From positions 1-19,840 of the forward strand of contig WJKH01000007.1 of NCBI GenBank assembly GCA_014729235.1: 19,840 bases of DNA, given 5' to 3'. A model generated the notes under the pieces. It worked only from the letters and a program-made list of their open reading frames with translations. It was not told the origin of the DNA and did no database searches. Below are positions 2,637 through 19,226 of this stretch, piece by piece. A program made the translations under genes and the position numbers. Positions within the stretch are counted from its first letter, which is position 1, and every line of letters begins with the position of its first letter. Source of the DNA: Candidatus Dojkabacteria bacterium. Lineage in GTDB: Bacteria; Patescibacteriota; Dojkabacteria; SC72; WJKH01.

Positions 2637-2698
2637 TTTGAATTAAATTGATAGTAAAAGGTATTTAAAATAATCCTGCATGAAAAGGCGACTAGGAC

Positions 2699-2745
2699 TT
2701 ATTGCACTATTGATTTTTGAATTTCGTAACTCACATTAAATTATT
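2699..2745 (+). promoter_or_regulatory. Copy A of a conserved 47-nt upstream element (candidate shared promoter/operator)
   Basis: 41/47 identical to 16283..16329, and the core 2707..2729 is a 23-nt perfect match to 16291..16313. It contains the imperfect inverted repeat TGAATT-TCGT-AACTCA (2718..2733). It ends 9 nt before the ATG at 2755. Confidence 0.55.
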
Positions 2746-2754
2746 AGGTCGATT

Positions 2755-5700
2755 ATGTCCGAGAAAAACAAATCCAAGAATTCCAAACAAAAAATTATCC
2801 AGATAAGGATTGATCTCAAAAAGCTTAGAGCGTTATGGGATAGAATTAAAACATGGGCAAAACAGGTGTTTGAATATTGGTCAGATCATTTTAAGTTTTT
2901 TACTCAAAAGTCTAATTGGAACCGAAAGACTTTGATTAAAAGATTTAAGCTGATTATTTCTGAAGCCGGAGATGCTCTAACTAAAACCTATAACGAGTTC
3001 AAGTTATTCTGGAAGAACCTTTCTTCGATTTTAAAGGGACTTATAGTGGCAGTCTTTATCCTTATCCTATCATTAAGTGCTTTCAGAGCTGCTAAAAAGT
3101 TATACTCAGTAGCAAAATACAGTTTAAGACCGGAGCTTATCGCGGCTTCAATCTACAACAATGAGACAAATGTTGATCCTGAGGAGGTAATATATTTTGA
3201 TTTCTCCAAAAAGATAGGTCAAAACTGGTTTGAGAAAGTGTTTACTGCAGAGAACGAGGGTTCTTACAAAATCATACCAGGCGACAGCGCAAACAGAGTG
3301 GGAGTGATTGCAGAAGGAGGTTGGCTTCCTGATAAAGAATACACATTGAACCTCGATAGTGACTATTTTAAAAAATCCCATATCATAAACTTTACGACTG
3401 TTAGCTCTCCCAAGATTGTTGCAAACAATCTTTCGTCCCACATTTTGCCCGGGCACACATTTTTATTTGCATATAATCAGGAGGTTTTTAATAAATCTGG
3501 TTCTGGAGAATCTGAAACCCAAGTGCCGGAAGATTTCATAAAGTTTGAACCGGCAGTATCCGGTAAGACTGAGGTTTTGTCACCATCAATGATCAGATTT
3601 ACTCCGGATAAGCCGCTAGAGGCTAGAAATTACAAATTAAGTTTGGGATCTCAAGAGCTTATCGGCTCAACCGGCTTGCATCAGACAAATTTTTTTGAAT
3701 CAGACTTTATAGTTACTGCAGAAACAGAGTCATCAAGTTCAGAGCGAAGATCTCACGATGTAGAGTTAATTATTAATGAGACAAGAAATGTCAGGGAAGA
3801 TACAAACGATCCTGTCTATATTTTACTTAATCAAGATATTGATAGAAAGCTTTTCTCTGAAAAATTGTCATTTCGATTCGAAGAAGATACAGAGACGGGG
3901 GCCAAAATTGATCTTCCGGGCATAAAAGAGGTAAAGTACTATTTTATCTCTGCTGAAGAAGCTGATGATAAATTTAAATATTACATATCTCCTGGACATA
4001 AACAGTTCCTCGTAGCTGAGGTGATTCCTGATAGTCCCTGGAGTAAAGCTGAAGCTCAAATCCAACTGGTTATAGCACCGGGAATTTCGTTAATAAATGG
4101 ATCTGGTAAAACTGAAAAAGAAAAGTATAGGAGAATAGACGTTAAAGAAGATATTAAATATGTTCGAACAAATCTTGCAAACGTCGAAGAATATGAAGAT
4201 TGGTATAGAACGGCCAGATTTGCTTTTAACAATGAGCTGATACACAGTGATGAAGAAATTCAGAATTTAGTCAGAGTATATGATAAAAATGGTGTAGTCG
4301 TCCCTTTACAGAAGCTCAGAGTTGTAAACTGGACCGGGGAGATTGTTTTTACAGATATTCTAAGTCCTGGAGAAGAATATACAATTGTGTTTAGCAGAAA
4401 TATAACAGATGTTTTTGGATCAAGATTGGACAAAGATGTCAGCGTAGATTTTACGTATCCAAGAATTCTGAAACCTGACGCAAACGGGAAATTTGTTTCG
4501 ATTTTTGGTACTGATTTTGCTATGGTTGATAACTCTGTTCCGCATCAAATCTATTTACGATCACGGGGATATGAAGAAGTATACGTTGAATTTGCCAGAA
4601 TACACCCAGAAGAGGCTATAGAAATTCTCGAAGCTGACTCTGTAGAAATTGCCGGTCAAAAAGCTGCAACAGCAGGACAAGTTGTAAAATATGACACAAA
4701 ACCGTTCCATGATGTCAAGTTTGAGGAAGGCAGCGGGATAAACGATACTTCACTTGAATTTCAATATGAGATTAAGGATATTCCTGATGGACTTTACATA
4801 GCTCGTGTTCAGAGTATGGACGGTGAGCACCGTGATTATAAGATTATGTCATTTACAACAGCATCAGCATTGCTGAAAGTTTCACGTCCGGAAGATGAGT
4901 TATTTGTTTGGCTTTCAGATTTGCGTGATGGAAAACCGATCTCGGGCAAATCTCTCAAACTGCGTTCGAAGAATTCTGAACTTGGCTCTCTAGAAACTAA
5001 TAAGTCCGGGGTATCAATTTTTCGCGATTTTATAGATAAGTCAGATTATGAAATTAAATCGTACGATGATCTATACGTATTTTCACCGGATGGCTCGATT
5101 TTTACTTCAACTGACTTTGACAACACAATGAATCCACGGGCATTTCTTGATAGGGATGAAGTTGCCACGAATCCAATGTATAATCTTAGTAAGGATGTCT
5201 TTACTTATATCGATAAACCAATATATAGGGTAGGTGATACCTTACACGCTAAATTTTTTTTACGCGATCTAGCTGACAACCAGAACTTGCCGTACATTGG
5301 TGAATTTGAAGTCACAATTGAGAAATATTCCGATGATAAACCTAAGATTTCAAGAATCTATAATACTAATGAGTATGGAACTGCGCATGGAAAATTTAAG
5401 CTGACAGATGAGTTTAAGCCTGGTGAATACAGTATATGCGTTCATGGATATAGACATTGTGAGAGATTTCTTCTTCAAGAGTTCCAGCCGCTTAGGTATA
5501 CATTTAACGTCAATAAAGACTCTAGAAAGACGTATAAGCCAAGTGATACTGTTGAGCTGGGTGTCGATGCAAATTATTATTTTGGGGAGCCTCTGGCAAA
5601 TGCTGAAGTAGAAGTTAATCTGTTTGTAAGAGATGACTACTTTACAGATTTTTATTCGTTGGATGAAGAGGCCTTCCCGGTGGATGATTTTTCAAAGTAT

Positions 5701-8700
5701 TCTCTTCACCTGCGCGACATTTGGGATGATGACTATGAGTATTATGATTCACTAAAGATTGGGACATATTTCGGCAGAACAGATTCAAACGGAAAGCTTT
5801 CTGTCAAATTACCGTTTGATGTACCGGAGCCGTATGCCTCACAAAATCCCAAATTGCTCTCAATAGAGGTCGCAGTGACTGATGAGCTGGGAGAAAAGCA
5901 GTATAGAACCTTATATGGGAAAGTTTTGCCAAAAGGCGGCATGATTGGACTGTTTGACAGTGATCCTGTAGTGGAAGAAGGCCAGACATTTTTTTATGAA
6001 TTTGAAGCTCTTTATATAGATGAGTATCTGAACCCAAAATCAAGTGCTCCGGTAGAATTTAGTCTGTACAGAGTAGAGTATTCCCAAGTAAGATCGCAGC
6101 TAATTAATCGTGATTATTATTGGGAAAATGTATCTAATGAAGTTTTGGAAGATAGAGTTGTTGTAAACACTGATTCGGATGGTAAGGCAGTTGCGAAACT
6201 TACTCCGAAATCAGTAGACGAAAATACCGATTACTATATTGTTGCTAAGTCTCTCTCATATCCAAATGTAGTTAACCGCCGCATGAAGTATGGATATCAT
6301 AAGTACTGGAGTGATCTTTATGATACTTATAATTCGGAGCAGATGCTGGAGATTGATACTGATAAGGGATCATACAAGCTAGGGGATACAGCACAGCTGG
6401 CACCGAAGATTGATTCGGGTAAATATGTAGGACTGCTTACCTATGAGAGAAAGGGTATTGTTGAGTATAAAGTTATTGATTTTAGATCGGATAACTACCG
6501 CAATGATTTGAAGCTTGAGATAAGTGACGATATTAAACCAAATATTTTTGCATCACTTTATGCCTTCACTCCACATGATTCTGGCAGTGAATTTATTGAC
6601 TATAGATTTGGTGTAGTACAGATAAAAGTTGATGAACCCGAACTGCTAAGAGAAATAAATGTGACTTATGATAAAGAGTCATACCTGGCGGGAGAAACGG
6701 TTACTGTAAATATTGACAATCCAGGTGTTGAAGAACAGACTGAGTATTTGGTGGCAGCTGTCGATAAGGCTGTACTGGATTTGTCTCTGGTAGGGCATTA
6801 TCCGAACGTTCTTGAGATGATGAAGGAAGATTTGTGGGAATCATGGAATCTAGGTATTGCATCGTCTTCAAATATTACTGAATATGAAAATAAGCTGATT
6901 AACGAGATAGCCTGGGGGAATAAGGGAGGAGCTGCGGGTGGAGGTGGCGGAGGTTATTACTCACTTGAACAGGAAGATATTCGCAATAAGTTTGAAGATG
7001 TAGCTGTCTGGCTTCCTGAGGTTTCATCTGAGACGGGTGATGCACAAATTAGTTTCAGCACACCGGATAATCTTACTACATGGCAGCTTGTTGTTTTGGG
7101 AATAAGTAAGTCCGGAGCAATTTCAGCCCAGAAAGCTGAGTTTAGAGTTTCAAAAGACGTAAATATCATCTCGCAGATTCCGGATAAGATGTATTTGGAT
7201 GATGAAATTGAAATAAGCGTTAATCCAATCATAGACTCTGAGTTTGTACAAAGGAATTTAAATTCTGGACTTAAAGTTGAAGTTACTGTTGATAGCGGCA
7301 CAATTGAGTGTGGCCAGAATTATGTTAGAGATACTGAGCGTGTTGACCAGGTTTTGGCTGAGGAAATTCAATCGACGCCTTCACAGAGCTGCCTAATTGA
7401 GAGAGAGCATAGTGACTTTCCGCTGCCTGTTATTTATAGACCTTCTGAGGTGGGTAAGACTTCAATTAGAATGACTGTAGGTACTGAGGAGAAGGCATAT
7501 GATTCGCTCGAAAGGGAAATTGAGATTATCCCTCAGTCCAATCAGAATACTATTATTTCCTATGGGGATACGCTGAACGATAATAATATTTCTGTTAAGT
7601 TTCCTGACCGCGCATATGATAAATCTCTTACTGTGAATTTCACAAACGATGTAATAGGTGATTTGGAGTTTAGCCGTGAATTTTTCTATAACTACCAAAA
7701 CTTGTGTAGTGAACAAACTTCTTCTACAATTTTAGGGTTGTTACCAGGTATAGATCAAAATGATGAATATCGGCAGAAGGCACAGCAGATGGTTGATTAT
7801 CTCACCCAGATGCAGAATTTTGACGGCGGCTGGTCTTATTGGGGAGAAGGTTCGAGTCGAGTATATAATTCAGCTTATGTAGTCTATGCTTTATCAAAGG
7901 CTAAAGCTTCCGGCCTTGATGTTCCTGATGCAACTCTAGCAAATGGCATAGATTTTCTGAATGATCAACATGATGATTATACTGTTACACATCTAAACGA
8001 GACTTTTATGAGATACGTGCTATCCGAGAGCGGCAAGTTTGATTTTTCTAGGATTGACAGCCGGTATCGTCGGATTGGTAGAAATTCTTCAACAATTGAG
8101 ACTCATGCTCTATTTCTCGGAATTTATAATAATTATCTAAACAGTGACGAAATTCAACTTGGTCAAAGAGCTTTGGTAAAGGAAAGAATCCGAGAAATTG
8201 AAACCTATTTACTTGATAATCTTATTGTCAGAAACCAGACTGCAAAATGGGGTGAAGCCCAGGAATTTGAAGAATTTTGGGATTTTTATCGAAATGATAC
8301 GAAAGTTACCGCACTGACTTTGGATATCATGCTTGATTCAATGGGGGGAGACGAGTCACTTATTCCGGTCGTAAATTACTTGAAAACGGAATTACAAACG
8401 AAAAAGCTCGGAACCTTGAGTATGTATTATGTTATTGATGCGCTTGAAAATGCAAAGGAAAAGTATGATTTCTCAAGTAAATATGTCAGAGAAGTGGAAA
8501 TTAATGGAGTGACCTACAATAATTTTGAAATTACTGAAAGCGGACGTCAACTGACAATTCCGTTGGATAATGAAGTAAAACAGCTCGGGATTACAGCTGT
8601 GAGCCAGGAAGGAAAACTTGTGTATTTTGATGCTAAAGCAGACTATAAAGTAGCTCTTGCTGATCAGCCCGAGAGCGACAGCGGAGCTGCAATATACGTT

Positions 8701-9111
8701 GAAGTTCTTGATGATGACCAAGTACTTAAAAAAGGAGATCAATATAAAGTCAGAGCTTATGTTGCTTTGACTGACACATCAGAGCCTTATCGACCGACTG
8801 AGATTCGGATCCCAGTTGCTGCCGGATTAACTCCTGTGAATTTTAATTTGGCTCCTACTGCATCAGATTCAATGAAGGATGAGCTATACCAGCTTTCGAG
8901 TGAGTTTGACAATGCAGAGTATCTGAGTAATGAGGTCGTGTTTTACGCTGGAAGTGGCTACGACGGATTGAAGCCCGGGTTTAAACAGTATGAATTTTAT
9001 GTAAACGCTACAAACAGAGGGAGATTTACGGTTCCGGGAGGTAATGTTCAAGAGATGTATTTGCCCGGACGTAGTTCTATTCAGGATAGCAATGTAATAT
9101 ATATTCAGTAA
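2755..9111 (+). CDS. Giant membrane-anchored alpha-2-macroglobulin family protein with a thioester motif (yfhM/ECAM-like)
   Basis: 2118-aa ORF. MG2-like 'YIDKPIYRVGDTLHAKFF..EYGTAHGKFKLTDEFKPGEYSI' and 'FQPLRYTFNV...ANYYFGEPLANAEVEV'. 'LVAAVDKAVLDLS' is A2M_N_2-like. 'FEDVAVWLPEV...STPDNLTTWQLVVLGISKSG' is the A2M domain signature. The thioester-type motif 'NLCSEQTSS' has CSEQ at 7705..7716. The TED-like repeat is 'FDGGWSYWG'. There is a single N-terminal TM (residues ~91-110, nt 3025..3084) and no Cys lipobox. Confidence 0.88.
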   Translation: MSEKNKSKNSKQKIIQIRIDLKKLRALWDRIKTWAKQVFEYWSDHFKFFTQKSNWNRKTLIKRFKLIISEAGDALTKTYNEFKLFWKNLSSILKGLIVAVFILILSLSAFRAAKKLYSVAKYSLRPELIAASIYNNETNVDPEEVIYFDFSKKIGQNWFEKVFTAENEGSYKIIPGDSANRVGVIAEGGWLPDKEYTLNLDSDYFKKSHIINFTTVSSPKIVANNLSSHILPGHTFLFAYNQEVFNKSGSGESETQVPEDFIKFEPAVSGKTEVLSPSMIRFTPDKPLEARNYKLSLGSQELIGSTGLHQTNFFESDFIVTAETESSSSERRSHDVELIINETRNVREDTNDPVYILLNQDIDRKLFSEKLSFRFEEDTETGAKIDLPGIKEVKYYFISAEEADDKFKYYISPGHKQFLVAEVIPDSPWSKAEAQIQLVIAPGISLINGSGKTEKEKYRRIDVKEDIKYVRTNLANVEEYEDWYRTARFAFNNELIHSDEEIQNLVRVYDKNGVVVPLQKLRVVNWTGEIVFTDILSPGEEYTIVFSRNITDVFGSRLDKDVSVDFTYPRILKPDANGKFVSIFGTDFAMVDNSVPHQIYLRSRGYEEVYVEFARIHPEEAIEILEADSVEIAGQKAATAGQVVKYDTKPFHDVKFEEGSGINDTSLEFQYEIKDIPDGLYIARVQSMDGEHRDYKIMSFTTASALLKVSRPEDELFVWLSDLRDGKPISGKSLKLRSKNSELGSLETNKSGVSIFRDFIDKSDYEIKSYDDLYVFSPDGSIFTSTDFDNTMNPRAFLDRDEVATNPMYNLSKDVFTYIDKPIYRVGDTLHAKFFLRDLADNQNLPYIGEFEVTIEKYSDDKPKISRIYNTNEYGTAHGKFKLTDEFKPGEYSICVHGYRHCERFLLQEFQPLRYTFNVNKDSRKTYKPSDTVELGVDANYYFGEPLANAEVEVNLFVRDDYFTDFYSLDEEAFPVDDFSKYSLHLRDIWDDDYEYYDSLKIGTYFGRTDSNGKLSVKLPFDVPEPYASQNPKLLSIEVAVTDELGEKQYRTLYGKVLPKGGMIGLFDSDPVVEEGQTFFYEFEALYIDEYLNPKSSAPVEFSLYRVEYSQVRSQLINRDYYWENVSNEVLEDRVVVNTDSDGKAVAKLTPKSVDENTDYYIVAKSLSYPNVVNRRMKYGYHKYWSDLYDTYNSEQMLEIDTDKGSYKLGDTAQLAPKIDSGKYVGLLTYERKGIVEYKVIDFRSDNYRNDLKLEISDDIKPNIFASLYAFTPHDSGSEFIDYRFGVVQIKVDEPELLREINVTYDKESYLAGETVTVNIDNPGVEEQTEYLVAAVDKAVLDLSLVGHYPNVLEMMKEDLWESWNLGIASSSNITEYENKLINEIAWGNKGGAAGGGGGGYYSLEQEDIRNKFEDVAVWLPEVSSETGDAQISFSTPDNLTTWQLVVLGISKSGAISAQKAEFRVSKDVNIISQIPDKMYLDDEIEISVNPIIDSEFVQRNLNSGLKVEVTVDSGTIECGQNYVRDTERVDQVLAEEIQSTPSQSCLIEREHSDFPLPVIYRPSEVGKTSIRMTVGTEEKAYDSLEREIEIIPQSNQNTIISYGDTLNDNNISVKFPDRAYDKSLTVNFTNDVIGDLEFSREFFYNYQNLCSEQTSSTILGLLPGIDQNDEYRQKAQQMVDYLTQMQNFDGGWSYWGEGSSRVYNSAYVVYALSKAKASGLDVPDATLANGIDFLNDQHDDYTVTHLNETFMRYVLSESGKFDFSRIDSRYRRIGRNSSTIETHALFLGIYNNYLNSDEIQLGQRALVKERIREIETYLLDNLIVRNQTAKWGEAQEFEEFWDFYRNDTKVTALTLDIMLDSMGGDESLIPVVNYLKTELQTKKLGTLSMYYVIDALENAKEKYDFSSKYVREVEINGVTYNNFEITESGRQLTIPLDNEVKQLGITAVSQEGKLVYFDAKADYKVALADQPESDSGAAIYVEVLDDDQVLKKGDQYKVRAYVALTDTSEPYRPTEIRIPVAAGLTPVNFNLAPTASDSMKDELYQLSSEFDNAEYLSNEVVFYAGSGYDGLKPGFKQYEFYVNATNRGRFTVPGGNVQEMYLPGRSSIQDSNVIYIQ

Positions 9112-13401: not shown

Positions 13402-14617
13402 TCTAAAAAGAGTAATCCCTGTTTTTCTGATCTCGATCATTGGCCTTGTGGCTTTGGTTTCAACAGAAATTAGTGATTCAGGGCAAATTGTAATAACGGC
13501 TATTATTTGGAAACAATTATCCTTTATGGTAGCTGGCTTTTTGATTTACAAAATTGTTTCACGGCTCGATTATACTTATCTTAAGCATATTCAGGTATCA
13601 CTCGTATTATATTTGCTTGTGTTGCTGGGGCTAATACTTACTCTGTTCTTTGGTCCTGTGAGACATAATGCCCGAAGATGGCTTGTGCTCGCCGGTATCC
13701 AGATTCAACCCTCAGAATTTGCAAAGCTAACCATCATTATTTTGACGTTGTCGCTGCTGTCACTGAGAGATAAATTCAATCAGTGGCTTTTGGTCTTTGT
13801 TTCGGGTCTATTTGCGTTAATATATGTAATTTTAATATATTTGCAGCCTCACGGCAGTATGGCATTAATAATAATGGCACTATGGGCTGTAAGTGTCTTC
13901 ACCGTTTTGCCAAAACAATTCCAAAACATGCTGGCAGGAGTGATATTCATAATTTCTTTTGTCTCCGGAATTATATTAAATCAAATGTCTATTATTGTCC
14001 TGATAGTCTCGGCAATCTTGTCAGGATTATTTGCGTATTTATCAAAAGTAAATAAATATCTGCTTATTGTCGTACTTGTAATCGGTGCTGTTATGGGATT
14101 ATTATTTAATCGATTTTCCTCAGAAATTTTTGTTTTTCAACACCAGAGAGAACGTATTGAAGCGTATTTAAGCAATTCATCAGAAAATGAGGCCGAATTG
14201 TTCAATGTTAACCAATCACAGATAGCGATAGGGTCCGGAAAGCTTTGGGGCAAGGGATTTGGTTTTGGTACGCAAAGTAAATTACGATTTTTGCCCGAAC
14301 ATCAAACTGACTTTATATTTGCTTCATATGCTGAGGAGTTCGGTCTGGTTGGTGTTGTGTTTCTTATAGGCTGCTATGGAGTTTTAATCTTCAATATTTT
14401 AAACGATGGTTTTGAGGTGGCTGACCACTTTGGAGCAGCTCTTGTAGAGATATTAGGTTTTAAAATCATGCTTGAAGTATTTATCAATATCGGTACTAAC
14501 ACAGGGATTATTCCTGCTACCGGAATTCCACTGCCTTTGTTTAGTGCTGGAGGCAGTATAACGCTTGCAACGTTTATCACTCTTGGAATGATTCAGGCTG
14601 TAATATTAAAAGATTGA
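13385..14617 (+). CDS. ftsW: SEDS-family peptidoglycan glycosyltransferase (FtsW/RodA/SpoVE); called FtsW from context
   Basis: Polytopic membrane protein carrying 'IQPSEFAKL', 'LPEHQTDFIFASYAEEFG' and 'IPATGIPLPLFSAGGS', all SEDS family signatures. It is adjacent to ftsZ. FtsW and RodA cannot be told apart from sequence alone. Confidence 0.88.
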   Translation: MIKKLDLKRVIPVFLISIIGLVALVSTEISDSGQIVITAIIWKQLSFMVAGFLIYKIVSRLDYTYLKHIQVSLVLYLLVLLGLILTLFFGPVRHNARRWLVLAGIQIQPSEFAKLTIIILTLSLLSLRDKFNQWLLVFVSGLFALIYVILIYLQPHGSMALIIMALWAVSVFTVLPKQFQNMLAGVIFIISFVSGIILNQMSIIVLIVSAILSGLFAYLSKVNKYLLIVVLVIGAVMGLLFNRFSSEIFVFQHQRERIEAYLSNSSENEAELFNVNQSQIAIGSGKLWGKGFGFGTQSKLRFLPEHQTDFIFASYAEEFGLVGVVFLIGCYGVLIFNILNDGFEVADHFGAALVEILGFKIMLEVFINIGTNTGIIPATGIPLPLFSAGGSITLATFITLGMIQAVILKD

Positions 14618-14642
14618 CAACTAAGTGATTATGATCTAAAAT
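14614..14642 (+). promoter_or_regulatory. Candidate sigma70-type promoter for rplU, overlapping the ftsW stop
   Basis: Consensus TTGACA (14614..14619), a 17-nt spacer, then TAAAAT (14637..14642). The rplU ATG at 14653 begins only 11 nt after the last base of the -10 box. Confidence 0.45.
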
Positions 14643-14652
14643 TAACGCAATT

Positions 14653-15015
14653 ATGGCAAAAACTACTGAAATAACAAAAAAAGTGAAAAAAGAGGAGAAG
14701 AGCACTGACTATGCAATTGTCAAGATGGCAGGGAAACAATTTAAAGTTTCTCCAGGTCAGGAGCTTGAAGTTAACAAAATTGACGCTAAAAAAGGCGACA
14801 AAATCGATATTGATGATGTTTTGTTAGTTAAAAAAGGTGACAAGGTGCAGATTGGGAAACCTGTTGTTGACGGTGCAAAAGTTACTTTTGAAGTGTTGGG
14901 ACAGAAACGTGGTGAAAAAGTGCGAACATTTAAATACAAGGCAAAGTCACGTTCCAGAAAGACACGAGGATCCAGACAGCACATAACTCAGCTAAAGGTA
15001 CTTAAGATACAATAA
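14653..15015 (+). CDS. rplU: 50S ribosomal protein L21
   Basis: 'YAIVKMAGKQFKVSPGQELEV' and 'GEKVRTFKYKAKSRSRKTRGSRQHITQLKV' align with canonical L21. It has a Lys/Glu-rich N-terminal extension of about 19 aa. Confidence 0.93.
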   Translation: MAKTTEITKKVKKEEKSTDYAIVKMAGKQFKVSPGQELEVNKIDAKKGDKIDIDDVLLVKKGDKVQIGKPVVDGAKVTFEVLGQKRGEKVRTFKYKAKSRSRKTRGSRQHITQLKVLKIQ

Positions 15016-15028
15016 TCTATCTTTTCAG

Positions 15029-16243
15029 ATGCAATATTTTTTTATAGCAGGCAGTAATAGAGGACTGTCATTTGCTGAAATACAAACACTTTTTGCCGGG
15101 CAGTATGGCACAGATAAAATTGAGATTGATACTTTTAAGGATGTGCTGCTCATTAAGTTTAAGAGTGCTGCTCCAAGTGATTCCGACATGAAGATCTGGT
15201 TTGATCGGCTTGGAGGGGTAGTAAAGTTTGGCAGAATTGTTGAAGATCAAGATAAGTTTCTGGAAGAAACAGCAGATAAGTTCAACAATGCTGAGACCGG
15301 AAGTATTCGATTTGGTATAAGCTTTCATGGTAAATTGGATCGAGTTGAGGACCCATTTGGTGGAATTAAAAAATTATCCAAAAAAGTTAAAAAGTATTTA
15401 AAAAGTCACGGAGTAAAATCCGGCTATACGCTACCACAAAAAGGCTCAAGCGAGCTTTCCTCTGCGCAGATATTTAACAATTCGCTAACTGAAGATGGGT
15501 TTGAGCTTGTACTGATTTCTCAGCAGAATTCAGACAAACTACTTGCGGGTGTCACTCTTGGCGTCCAGAACATTGAAGATTTTTCATTTCGTGATTTCAA
15601 AAAACCAGCAGTTGATACTGTTATGGGAATGCTGCCTCTTAAACTTGCAAGAATTATGGTTAATTTAGCTGATGTTGAACCCGGTGAGACTATCTGGGAT
15701 CCTTTTTGCGGCTCCGGAACAGTTTTAATGGAAGCTCTCCACCTTGGTTACAATGTCCTTGGCTCTGATTTTAATAATTCTGCTGTTGTAAATTCGAAAA
15801 CCAACATTGAGTGGATGGGGGAGCATTATGCTCTTGATGATAGTAGATATCGAGTTTTTGATTTTGATATTAGTGATCCCGATGGCAAAATTGTCACTGA
15901 ATTGAAACATACTACTATTTCCGCAGTTGTCTGTGAGCCATATATGGGACCTCCTCAAAAAACAGTTATTCCTAACGATGAAGCCGAAGAGCAGGCCCGA
16001 AAATTTGGTTTTTTGATCGAAAACCTGTTTGATCTGCTGGAAAATTTAAGGCAAGAGACTCTAAAAGTGGTTTTGGTGGTTCCTTCTTACAAAACTCGGA
16101 ATGGCTGGGTAAATGTAAGTTTAAATTCTGTAATCAGCTCAAATTGGAATATTGTAAGCTCTGATTACATATGGGACTTGCAATGGAGCAGAAAGAATAG
16201 TATCATCAAGCGAAATATCATGGTTTTAGAGCTTGATAAATAG
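15029..16243 (+). CDS. Putative SAM-dependent RNA methyltransferase (UPF0020/Trm11-like Rossmann domain) with an uncharacterised N-terminal domain of about 200 aa
   Basis: 404-aa ORF. SAM-binding motif I is 'WDPFCGSGTVLMEALHLGYNVLGSDFN'. A motif IV-like 'VVCEPYMGPP' stands in place of the canonical (D/N)PPY. It lies between rplU and rpmA. The substrate cannot be assigned from sequence. Confidence 0.6.
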   Translation: MQYFFIAGSNRGLSFAEIQTLFAGQYGTDKIEIDTFKDVLLIKFKSAAPSDSDMKIWFDRLGGVVKFGRIVEDQDKFLEETADKFNNAETGSIRFGISFHGKLDRVEDPFGGIKKLSKKVKKYLKSHGVKSGYTLPQKGSSELSSAQIFNNSLTEDGFELVLISQQNSDKLLAGVTLGVQNIEDFSFRDFKKPAVDTVMGMLPLKLARIMVNLADVEPGETIWDPFCGSGTVLMEALHLGYNVLGSDFNNSAVVNSKTNIEWMGEHYALDDSRYRVFDFDISDPDGKIVTELKHTTISAVVCEPYMGPPQKTVIPNDEAEEQARKFGFLIENLFDLLENLRQETLKVVLVVPSYKTRNGWVNVSLNSVISSNWNIVSSDYIWDLQWSRKNSIIKRNIMVLELDK

Positions 16244-16282
16244 TTTATTAGTCGCCTGAGGCTCTTTTTCATGATTCAAAAA

Positions 16283-16329
16283 TTATTGTTCTATTGATTT
16301 TTGAATTTCGTAATTCACTTTAATTTATG
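16283..16329 (+). promoter_or_regulatory. Copy B of the conserved 47-nt upstream element
   Basis: 41/47 identical to 2699..2745, with the 23-nt perfect core at 16291..16313. It contains the perfect inverted repeat TGAATT-TCGT-AATTCA (16302..16317). It ends 13 nt before the rpmA ATG. Confidence 0.55.
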
Positions 16330-16336
16330 GTATAAT
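16328..16336 (+). promoter_or_regulatory. Candidate extended -10 promoter (TGgTATAAT) for rpmA
   Basis: TGGTATAAT at 16328..16336 matches TGnTATAAT. The rpmA ATG at 16343 begins 7 nt after the last base of the -10 box, which implies a leaderless or near-leaderless transcript. Confidence 0.4.
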
Positions 16337-16342
16337 AGGACT

Positions 16343-16639
16343 ATGTCACATGTTGCAGCGGCTGGTTCAGCCAGACAAACGAAAAATATGCGGGGAAAGA
16401 GGCTCGGCCTCAAGAAATATGCTGATGAGTTTGTTCTCAACGGCAATATCATTGTAAAACAACGAGGTTCGGTTTATCATCCCGGAAAAAACACCAAAAT
16501 GGGGCGTGACTTTTCTATATACGCCGTAAAAGACGGCTATGTCAAATTTCGCAGAATGTCAGGTGCAAAGCGGGGTCAATACTATATTGATATCGTTGAT
16601 CAACCTCAGGAGGAAAAGTCTTCTCCGGATAAAGCATGA
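16343..16639 (+). CDS. rpmA: 50S ribosomal protein L27
   Basis: 'MSHVAAAGSARQ..GKRLGLKKYADEFVLNGNIIVKQRGSVYHPGKNTKMGRDFSIYAVKDGYVKF' aligns with canonical L27 from its first residues. The start is therefore placed at ATG 16343 rather than the TTG at 16301 used by the ORF track. Confidence 0.92.
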   Translation: MSHVAAAGSARQTKNMRGKRLGLKKYADEFVLNGNIIVKQRGSVYHPGKNTKMGRDFSIYAVKDGYVKFRRMSGAKRGQYYIDIVDQPQEEKSSPDKA

Positions 16640-16690
16640 GATTTTGCTGATAATCTGCTCAATTCCACTCAATTTTAAGTCTAATTTCTG

Positions 16691-17449
16691 ATGGCACGCA
16701 GAAAATACGTACAAATCGAAAACAAAAACGCTCTTTTAGAGCTATTGCGTGAAGGACGTAAGTTTCAAAGAATTTTTGTAGCTCATAACGCTTTTAAAGA
16801 TCCCAAGACCAAGGAGATTCTCGATGAGGCTCATAAAGCTGATGTCCCTATAAATAAAGTTGCACGTCGTGATTTGGACCGCCGCTCCAGGACAGCAGCC
16901 AGAGAAAGTGTAATTGGCCTTATGCTTCCTCAGAATCAATGGAATCTGGATGATTTGCTTGAAAAACTTTATTCGAAGAAGGAAGATCCCTTTTTTCTGA
17001 TCTTTGATCATGTCCGCTATTCATTGAATATTGGGGCAATAATGCGTACTGCATTTGGCGGATTTGTAAATGGTGTAATAACGCATATTAAGAAGGCAAG
17101 TTTTCTAACAGATGAAGCATTGCGTATCTCAATGGGCGCTTGTGAACGTATTCCTGTTGTTGAGATGAATCTATTTTCGGCAATTAAAGAGCTTCAGGAT
17201 AATGCTATTAAAGTTATAGGACTGGAAACCGGTGGGGAACCCTATTTTAATGTTGATCTGACTGGTCCGGTTGCTATCGTGCTCGGTGCTGAGGATGTAG
17301 GGATTTCGCCTCGCGTGTTGGAACGGGTCGACGAGGTTGCTACTATTCCAATGAGAGAGGGGATAGGGTCTCTGAATGTTAATGCCAGCGCTTCAATTAT
17401 GATTTACGAGAAAGTTCGACAGGAGGCTGTCGCCATGGGTAATTCATAG
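16691..17449 (+). CDS. SpoU/TrmH-family RNA 2'-O-methyltransferase (RlmB-like)
   Basis: The N-terminal region resembles a substrate-binding domain. The C-terminal SPOUT motifs are 'IFDHVRYSLNIGAIMRTA', 'VLGAEDVGIS' and 'IPMREGIGSLNVNASASIMIYE'. The specific target nucleotide is not assignable. Confidence 0.85.
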   Translation: MARRKYVQIENKNALLELLREGRKFQRIFVAHNAFKDPKTKEILDEAHKADVPINKVARRDLDRRSRTAARESVIGLMLPQNQWNLDDLLEKLYSKKEDPFFLIFDHVRYSLNIGAIMRTAFGGFVNGVITHIKKASFLTDEALRISMGACERIPVVEMNLFSAIKELQDNAIKVIGLETGGEPYFNVDLTGPVAIVLGAEDVGISPRVLERVDEVATIPMREGIGSLNVNASASIMIYEKVRQEAVAMGNS

Positions 17450-17536
17450 TACGCTGGAATCTCGCTTTTAAAACTGCATGTAGCTCATTCTCCGAGGCAC
17501 TCAAGCTAGCAATTTCGTACTTTACTACAAGTAAAA

Positions 17537-18412
17537 TCAATTATCTTGCAGCTTTTTAACTAGACCGTCCAGGTCCTTATCAGAGTCAAACTTTATCACA
17601 ATTTTACCACCTGAACTCAGCTTTTTGATACTGACATCATAACCCAAATTCTTTGAAAGAGACTCCTCAATACGCTTCTCGGCCTTGGAAAGCTCCTCAA
17701 TCTTACTCTTGCTGCTTTGCTTACTGTAATTAATTTTACGCACCAGAGTCTCTGTTTCGCGAACACTAAGATTGCGCTTTACTGCTATATTAGCAGTGGC
17801 AGTCAGGGAAGACTCATCAGATAGCCCCAGTAAGGCTCTGGCATGCCCCTCCGTAAGCTGATTATTCATCACATACTCTTTCACACTGTCCGGGAGTGCT
17901 AAAAGTCTAAGCTTATTTGTGATCGTTACACGGTTGAGCCCTACTTTTTTGGCAATTTCTGAATGCGTTAACCCGAATTCATCTGCTAATTGCTTGAATG
18001 CCAGGGCTTCTTCAAGGGGATTAAGATCTTGACGCTGGATATTTTCAATCAAAGCCAGCTCGAGCATTTCTTGTGGAGAAATATCTTTTATTACAACCGG
18101 AACAGTGTCCTTTCCTGCAAGCTGAGAAGCTCGAAAGCGTCTCTCGCCGGCAATTAAATAGTACTGATCCTTGTCCTTTGCTTCATTATCTTTTGTAATC
18201 AGCAATGGCTGGATCACGCCGTGTTCACGTATTGAATCAGCAATTTCAATTAATTCGTCCGGATCAATATTCATCCGTGGCTGGTATGGATTAGGCACAA
18301 TTTTATTAATGCTGAAATGTTCCTGATACCCGGTTGAGTCAATTGAACCTGAACTGATCAAAGCTGAAAGGCCTTTCCCTAAACGATTAGCTTGCTGATT
18401 ATCTGATGCCAT
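17537..18412 (-). CDS. parB: Chromosome partitioning protein ParB/Spo0J
   Basis: 'LGKGLSALI', 'GVIQPLLI', 'YYLIAGERRFRAS', 'ENIQRQDLNPLEEA', and the HTH 'THSEIAKKVGLNRVTITNKLRLL'. The start is set at ATG 18410..18412 ('MASDNQQ'), 22 nt downstream of the parA stop. The ORF-track extension to 18526 would overlap parA. Confidence 0.92.
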   Translation of the reverse strand: MASDNQQANRLGKGLSALISSGSIDSTGYQEHFSINKIVPNPYQPRMNIDPDELIEIADSIREHGVIQPLLITKDNEAKDKDQYYLIAGERRFRASQLAGKDTVPVVIKDISPQEMLELALIENIQRQDLNPLEEALAFKQLADEFGLTHSEIAKKVGLNRVTITNKLRLLALPDSVKEYVMNNQLTEGHARALLGLSDESSLTATANIAVKRNLSVRETETLVRKINYSKQSSKSKIEELSKAEKRIEESLSKNLGYDVSIKKLSSGGKIVIKFDSDKDLDGLVKKLQDN

Positions 18413-18434
18413 AGTGATTTCTAGATTTATAAAA

Positions 18435-19226
18435 TTAGTTAAACTTGTTAATAAACTCCTTTGCCAGTTTTCTGTAAGCGATAGCTCCGGTGGAATTTGG
18501 GTCATAGACCTCAATAACCTGGCCATGAGATGGGGCTTCGGAAAGTCTTACGTTTCTCGGGATGATAGTTTTAAAGACAATATCATCAAAATGCGATTGG
18601 ACATCATTGACGACCTGCTCGGCAAGCCTGGTACGCTTATCAAACATTGTGAGGACAACTCCTCCAATAGTCAGGTTTTGATTTATGCCTTTAATCAGCT
18701 CAACAGTTTGCAGGAGCTGACCCAATCCTTCAAGAGCGTAGTATTCACATTGAATTGGGACTATGAGTTTATCGGCAGCAGTCAGGGCATTGATTGTAAG
18801 TAAGCCAAGAGAGGGCGGACAGTCTATAAGGACATAGTCAAAATCTTCAGTCAATTCATTGAGAGCTTTTTTAAGTAGATTTTCGCGAGCTAGAATATTT
18901 ACCATTTCAATTTCAGCACCCGCTAGCGAGAGATGCGAAGGGACAAGGTAAAGATTATCAACATCTGTTGCTACAAATACTGAAGAAATTGGGGCTTTTT
19001 CAATTAAAACATCATAAATGCTTTTGTATGGAGCTTGATCGACCTTATTCCACTGATCACGGGGATATTTCTGCGTGAAACCAACACCTGAAGATAAATT
19101 AGCCTGAGGATCCAGATCAATGAGCAATGTCTTCTTGCCCTTAAACGCCAAATTTGCCCCTAGATTAACAGTAGTTGTAGTCTTGCCGACTCCACCTTTT
19201 TGATTGGCGATTACAAAAGTTTGCAT
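18435..19226 (-). CDS. parA: Chromosome partitioning ATPase ParA/Soj
   Basis: Deviant Walker A 'NQKGGVGKTTTTVNL' plus 'LLIDLDPQAN' and 'VLIDCPPSLG'. It lies immediately upstream of parB. Confidence 0.95.
   Translation of the reverse strand: MQTFVIANQKGGVGKTTTTVNLGANLAFKGKKTLLIDLDPQANLSSGVGFTQKYPRDQWNKVDQAPYKSIYDVLIEKAPISSVFVATDVDNLYLVPSHLSLAGAEIEMVNILARENLLKKALNELTEDFDYVLIDCPPSLGLLTINALTAADKLIVPIQCEYYALEGLGQLLQTVELIKGINQNLTIGGVVLTMFDKRTRLAEQVVNDVQSHFDDIVFKTIIPRNVRLSEAPSHGQVIEVYDPNSTGAIAYRKLAKEFINKFN

Follow-up and report, generated by a model that had tools for sequence, protein, structure and literature searches.

Genomic context of the two spacers

The stretch of DNA analysed here (19,840 nucleotides, hereafter the window) belongs to a member of Candidatus Dojkabacteria (WS6, CPR/Patescibacteria). 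Its plus strand opens with an ORF of 121 aa, a class-A PBP gene (675–2636), a first spacer and the A2M gene (2755–9111, 2118 aa), followed by an FtsQ-like gene, FtsA, FtsZ, DUF1232, FtsW and L21 (14653–15015). Then come a UPF0020/N6_N4_Mtase-like protein of 404 aa (15029–16243), a second spacer, L27 (rpmA, 16343–16639) and a SpoU methylase, whereas the minus strand carries ParB, ParA and a signal peptidase. The identities of A2M and Ribosomal_L27, the two non-paralogous genes that the repeat described below flanks, were confirmed by Pfam, and both proteins match NCBI entries of a Candidatus Dojkabacteria MAG at 100% identity.

For comparison, we fetched syntenic Dojkabacteria loci through L27 and A2M homologues (L023/L025, L024 and L026–L033). 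The closest relative compared was L023/L025 (Logan SRR10018916; L27 80% and A2M 43% identical), which is also the sole fetched relative with an A2M gene (in L025); L27 of L024 (GCA_015657875.1) is 76% identical. The order L21, methyltransferase, L27, SpoU is kept in all fetched loci, with a UPF0020/N6_N4_Mtase-like protein of ~380–405 aa between rplU and rpmA in every one of them (14653–17449 in the window; L024–L033). The two spacers are much longer in the window than in its relatives:

2637–2754, plus strand: PBP–A2M spacer (spacer A), 118 bp; 7 bp in L025
16244–16342, plus strand: methyltransferase–rpmA spacer (spacer B), 99 bp; 17–25 bp in relatives

Because the gaps of the relatives are short and free of the repeated element, both spacers are lineage-specific expansions sharing duplicated DNA. 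Neither the 23-nt core of the element (allowing ≤3 mismatches) nor its palindrome was present at the related loci L024–L033, and the element was missing upstream of rpmA in all fetched relatives and upstream of A2M in L025. An assembly chimera was rejected, since both flanks of both copies are syntenic with relatives.

Several other features of these genes were recorded. The PBP ORF ends in three in-frame stops (TAA 2634, TGA 2649 and TAG 2652), and GAATTAAATTGATAG (2634–2654) resembles the 3′ end of the L025 PBP gene (GATTTAAATTATTATTAG), which suggests that the PBP stop codon has moved upstream. At the other end of the gene, TATTAT abuts the annotated ATG (675), and 6 nt past this box (669–683) there is another ATG, at 681; judging from this arrangement, the true PBP start may be 681, possibly leaderless. 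Between the ORF at 229–594 and the PBP gene, a GC-rich hairpin (GGGCACGG-CTCC-GCCGTGCCC) followed by TTTT (631–651) is likely an intrinsic terminator and probably explains a weak 'Termite-leu' Rfam hit at 624–687. On the minus strand, the ParB ORF (329 aa) overlaps parA by 92 nt, and its start is probably further downstream because the ParB proteins of relatives have only 286–290 aa. A 16-bp palindrome inside parB (GGATCAATATTCATCC, 18261–18276) is conserved at 15 of 16 positions in L025 (18787–18802).

A repeated element upstream of A2M and rpmA

Spacers A and B share an element of 47 nt close to the start codons of the genes that follow them:

2699–2745, plus strand: copy A, in front of the A2M gene (ATG 2755); 41/47 identical to 16283–16329
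16283–16329, plus strand: copy B, in front of rpmA/L27 (ATG 16343); 41/47 identical to copy A
2707–2729, plus strand: 23-mer core CTATTGATTTTTGAATTTCGTAA in copy A, exact; holds TTGATT (2710–2715) and TTGAAT (2717–2722)
16291–16313, plus strand: 23-mer core CTATTGATTTTTGAATTTCGTAA in copy B, exact

The first-pass annotation had described this pair of copies as 41/47 identical with a perfect 23-nt core, too long a match to be random, and our analysis bore this out. The ungapped alignment of 2699–2744 with 16283–16328 contains 41 identities in 46 positions, and with the mismatched position 47 it amounts to 87%; the mismatches between the copies fall at element positions 7, 8, 32, 37, 42 and 47. 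None of 200 dinucleotide shuffles of the window produced a chance 23-mer match, and the 23-mer occurs in the window only in these two copies, even with ≤3 mismatches allowed. Both copies were likewise found on the plus strand, as had been stated, ending 9 nt (copy A) and 13 nt (copy B) before an ATG, so that they occupy positions −56 to −10 of A2M and −60 to −14 of rpmA. The 6-4-6 palindrome noticed in that annotation (TGAATT-N4-AATTCA) also exists, perfect at 16302–16317 and with one mismatch at 2718–2733.

The perfect core provides no evidence of selection, since a mismatch-free run of 23 nt is expected in 9–15% of random placements of the observed mismatches. Selection on the core is not supported on this basis (run length p 0.09–0.15), and the mismatch pattern singles out neither the core nor the palindrome. 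A core of such unremarkable length fits a recent duplication followed by drift.

Extent of the similarity and flanking sequences

On the 3′ side of the repeat, the two sites remain similar through TAGG...TATGTC, start codon included, as far as the second base of codon 2:

2746–2759, plus strand: 3′ extension at site A, AGGTCGATTATGTC, aligned with two indels to 16330–16347
16337–16347, plus strand: 3′ extension at site B, AGGACTATGTC, which takes in the start codon of rpmA

This extension needs a 7-nt and a 3-nt indel (p about 0.009 for global alignment against shuffles, with the ATG fixed), and with indels allowed the whole alignment spans ~61–65 columns at about 80% identity. That the similarity reaches both ATGs fits the duplication of a gene 5′ region. 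The rpmA start itself (ATGTCA/ATGTCG) is conserved among all relatives compared. Native L025 sequence at the corresponding sites (TTTAAATTAT and TTTAAAATAT) is also similar to the proximal 10–13 nt of the two copies, whose proximal ten bases are ATTAAATTAT and TTTAATTTAT; this blurs the boundaries of the repeat as well as the direction in which it was copied.

To the left of the repeat, spacers A and B differ, apart from a marginal match in inverted orientation. Three features of these flanks deserve mention:

2686–2694, no strand assigned: AGGCGACTA, reverse complement of TAGTCGCCT at 16249–16257
2642–2654, plus strand: ATTAAATTGATAG, direct repeat (11/13) of ATTAAATTATTAG at 2735–2747; weak, p about 0.08
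16274–16283 and 16297–16306, no strand assigned: inverted repeat of copy B (ATTCAAAAAT and ATTTTTGAAT), with 10-nt arms and a 13-nt loop

The first of them, together with the adjoining CATGAAA, suggests an inverted segment common to both spacers: CATGAAA..AGGCGACTA (2679–2694) matches the reverse complement at 16249–16273, with marginal significance (p about 0.05). At site A, some 80 additional nucleotides lie between the members of the 11/13 direct-repeat pair; the left member, ATTAAATTGATAG, shares the reading frame of the PBP ORF and is similar to the 3′ end of the L025 PBP gene. The left arm of the copy-B inverted repeat is the upstream flank of copy B itself and has no counterpart in copy A.

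Search for further copies

A scan of public genome, metagenome and viral contigs, from sources other than the genome analysed here, with the 20-mer TTGATTTTTGAATTTCGTAA returned 11, 11 and 1 matching stretches, respectively, none with similarity in the flanks; several of them lie inside coding sequence or are mutual orthologues. The full 23-mer is present in a 132-kb viral contig (L034, 5335–5357; IMG/VR UViG_3300042402_002841), which we rejected as a true copy and take to be a chance match, as its flanks are dissimilar and it runs antisense within an ORF of 140 aa. When the two spacers were compared by blastn at low stringency with the window and with all Dojkabacteria loci, no third copy emerged, only 8–16-mers at chance level, with the exception of a 16-mer near a tRNA-Glu gene. 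This 16-mer (ATTTATGGTATAATAG, 16323–16338) is identical in the tRNA-Glu promoter region of L024 (14523–14538, minus strand; blastn E 0.002), and the identity covers the −10 region, outside the shared core.

The convergent spacer between SpoU and ParB (17511–17541) holds both halves of the 23-mer, AATTTCGTA on the plus strand at 17511 and ATTGATTTT, which overlaps the parB stop codon, on the minus strand at 17533–17541; each 9-mer alone is at chance level (E about 5–6). The first of them (17511–17519) had already been pointed out in the earlier annotation as a partial match that could be fortuitous, and its blastn E value agrees with that caution.

Promoter signals around the two copies

The strongest sigma-70-type sites of the window are TTGACA-18-TATAGT (ftsA), TTGACA-17-TAAAAT (L21) and TTGTAA-16-TATAAT (first ORF). 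Because these three top-scoring sites are all intergenic, the organism uses canonical promoters. Around the two copies of the repeat, we found the following candidates:

16328–16336, plus strand: extended −10 box TGGTATAAT, a perfect match, with 6 nt between it and the rpmA ATG; putative leaderless-type promoter
2717–2744, plus strand: candidate promoter of copy A, weak (8/12): TTGAAT, then AATTAT after a 16-nt spacer; 10 nt separate it from the A2M ATG

We infer from this box that rpmA has an extended −10, leaderless-type sigma-70 promoter, and place its transcription start by the same reasoning. The box, absent from the first-pass annotation, overlaps the last two bases of copy B, and the orthologous place in L025 reads TGTTATAAT followed by 7 nt and ATG. 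As TGGTATAAT, at 6 nt from the ATG, comes directly after copy B, this copy would span about −60 to −14 of the putative rpmA promoter. At the −35 position (17-nt spacing), copy B offers TCGTAA, a poor hexamer (3/6), and poor −35 hexamers are usual in extended −10 promoters. Since copy B supplies no good −35, the element may be dispensable at rpmA.

Copy A, which has a 7-nt gap relative to copy B, lacks an extended −10 box. Its best candidate pair (AATTAT at 2739–2744) scores below the threshold of the promoter scan, and the distance from this candidate to the ATG equals that of the L21 promoter (14614–14642). With no strong −10 box and a best pair of only 8/12, promoter function at A2M is doubtful; the observation of the earlier annotation that no well-spaced −10 box lies inside the element proved correct, as the element has no well-spaced −35/−10 pair. 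TTGATT, one of the hexamers of the core, can serve as a −35: in L024, it precedes the TGCTATAAT box of tRNA-Leu at the correct spacing of 17 nt.

The architecture of the rpmA start appears to be frequent in this lineage. In six non-redundant Dojkabacteria loci (the window, L024, L025, L026, L027 and L031), a −10 box (at least 5/6 matches, with A2 and T6) ends 5–10 nt before the ATG, often after TGn, at 26 of 101 gene starts, against a background of ~1–2 per offset, although these counts are not independent because the sample contains orthologues. The rpmA box, at 6 nt from its ATG, lies inside this 5–10 nt hump, and occurrences of TGnTATAAT are mostly found just upstream of ATGs or tRNA genes. 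These patterns suggest that leaderless or near-leaderless mRNAs transcribed from extended −10 promoters are widespread in Dojkabacteria.

Origin of the shared segment

The reading that we prefer, with a probability of roughly one half, is a recent, lineage-specific duplication of promoter-proximal DNA, of the kind called 'putative mobile promoter', without an independently conserved binding site. According to this scenario, the PBP–A2M and L21–methyltransferase–L27 regions of the ancestor would have been tightly packed operon junctions, both of which would have gained about 75–110 bp including the shared ~47 nt (~61–65 nt with indels), copied by templated insertion or ectopic recombination. 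The segment would thereby have come to lie in the same orientation and at a nearly equal distance from the start codon at both sites. At rpmA, it might provide at most an AT-rich upstream or −35-region context for a promoter independent of a consensus −35. At A2M, TTGAAT and the downstream AATTAT could form a weak internal promoter, partly uncoupling A2M from PBP; alternatively, the segment might merely be carried on a read-through PBP–A2M transcript. The duplication itself, its absence from the relatives and the promoter geometry at rpmA are shown by the sequences; where transcription starts, whether copy A acts as a promoter, and how and in which direction the segment was copied are inferred.

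The main rival of this duplication of a promoter segment is a neutral insertion relic, which we consider rather unlikely: a functionally neutral repeat that goes back to a small, non-autonomous mobile element of MITE or IS descent, or to a complex templated insertion, which landed in two operon junctions, tolerated since extended −10 promoters and read-through transcription would not depend on the sequence upstream. The expansion of both spacers in this lineage alone agrees with such an origin, as do the differing inserts to the left of the repeat, the possible 11/13 direct repeat around ~80 nt at site A, the possible segment inverted between the spacers, the mismatch pattern devoid of a selection signal and the lack of a good −10 box in copy A. 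However, the copies have no terminal inverted repeats in common (only copy B has one, of 10 nt, formed with its own upstream flank), site B shows no target duplication better than chance, and no further copies were found in the 19.8 kb, the relatives or public collections. Moreover, random insertion does not predict that both copies should have the same orientation and a near-equal distance to the ATG.

A dimeric transcription factor binding TGAATT-N4-AATTCA and co-regulating A2M and L27, as the first-pass annotation had proposed, seems improbable to us. The palindrome is perfect in copy B, where it would lie at approximately −41 to −26, overlapping the −35 region in a plausible position for a repressor, and it has a single mismatch in copy A. 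However, such palindromes are at chance level: the window contains 46 with perfect 6-nt arms and loops of 0–6 nt, 4 of them with a 4-nt loop, and 8 of 16 bp with at least 7/8 pairs. The identity between the copies is not centred on the palindrome, as the core runs 11 nt leftward and copy A has a mutated right arm. In addition, the two copies place the palindrome at distances from the ATG that differ by 4 nt, and at distances from the candidate −10 that differ by ~8 nt, and the site is missing from the orthologous promoters in all relatives (L024–L033). The sole regulator encoded in the window is ParB, and the site resembles parS no better than chance; a parS reading was rejected with 9/16 matches to TGTTNCACGTGAAACA. 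No canonical parS was detected within the window at ≤3 mismatches, although parAB is present (17537–19226). Resemblances to Zur and ARG boxes were rejected as well, being limited to a half-site or wrongly spaced.

We regard it as very improbable that the repeat acts in cis as RNA, within a 5′ leader or intercistronic region common to both genes, for instance as an AU-rich translation enhancer devoid of structure or as a processing site on read-through operon transcripts. The element is indeed AU-rich and unstructured, it would be contained in read-through transcripts because no terminator-like site follows the PBP or methyltransferase gene, and a 9/12 promoter-like site at 2620–2649 would put copy A inside a leader; however, such sites are not in excess (67 in the window versus 53 ± 8 in shuffles), Rfam has no match near either copy at E ≤ 1, the spacers and copies fold no better than shuffled sequences (MFE z-scores −1.03 to +1.25), the putative start at rpmA lies 3′ of copy B, and relatives manage with spacers of 7–25 nt. 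The earlier suggestion of a 5′-leader element is thus not supported.

If copy A is active, the duplication of promoter-proximal DNA would represent a promoter capture that splits a conserved PBP–A2M operon in a bacterium with a reduced genome; the transcription signals of the CPR group, to which it belongs, have hardly been studied. The extended −10 boxes located 5–9 nt before the ATG, apparently common in Dojkabacteria, are possibly more useful than the repeat itself. On a much more speculative note, to which we give little credence, the two copies might belong to a putative family of short, orientation-specific, promoter-proximal cassettes that spread within Dojkabacteria genomes, inserting by TTTAAWTTAT-like sequences upstream of start codons, splitting ancestral operons and providing A2M and other genes with transcription or regulation of their own; or they might contain the operator of an unknown CPR regulator tying envelope protection to ribosome synthesis.

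Comparison with known systems

The palindrome recalls the ARG box (TGAAT-N4-ATTCA), a palindromic operator of dimeric repressors, in its inverted TGAAT and ATTCA half-sites. However, these are separated here by 6 nt instead of 4, no cognate regulator was identified, and the relatives lack the site.

As short repeated intergenic DNA that can adjoin gene starts, the element is also similar to Correia elements, ERIC and REPIN, but its copies have no shared terminal inverted repeats, conserved hairpin or clear target-site duplication, and only two of them are known. Such miniature elements can influence transcription, according to work cited in PMC3575422.

The resemblance to extended −10 (TGnTATAAT) leaderless sigma-70 promoters is that copy B is immediately followed by the box, 6 nt and the ATG, a geometry that recurs in Dojkabacteria. 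In contrast with those promoters, the repeat consists of the DNA upstream of the −10 box, and copy A has no box.

Finally, putative mobile promoters (PMPs) are highly similar upstream regions found before unrelated genes (Matus-Garcia, Nijveen & van Passel 2012; PMC3575422). As described in that article, most PMP families are pairs, with an average identity of 92% and an unknown mobilisation mechanism, and the screen covered regions of at least 50 nt, with at least 80% identity, at −150 to −50 of the start codon. The pair found here agrees with that description in being non-coding DNA, 87% identical, upstream of two unrelated genes of one genome with non-paralogous coding sequences. It differs from the settings of that screen in its length, 47 nt ungapped (~61–65 with indels) versus at least 50 nt, and in its location, −60 to −10, which falls outside the range of −150 to −50. 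This start-proximal position, as compared with the PMP screen, can be explained by the apparently leaderless nature of the genes concerned.
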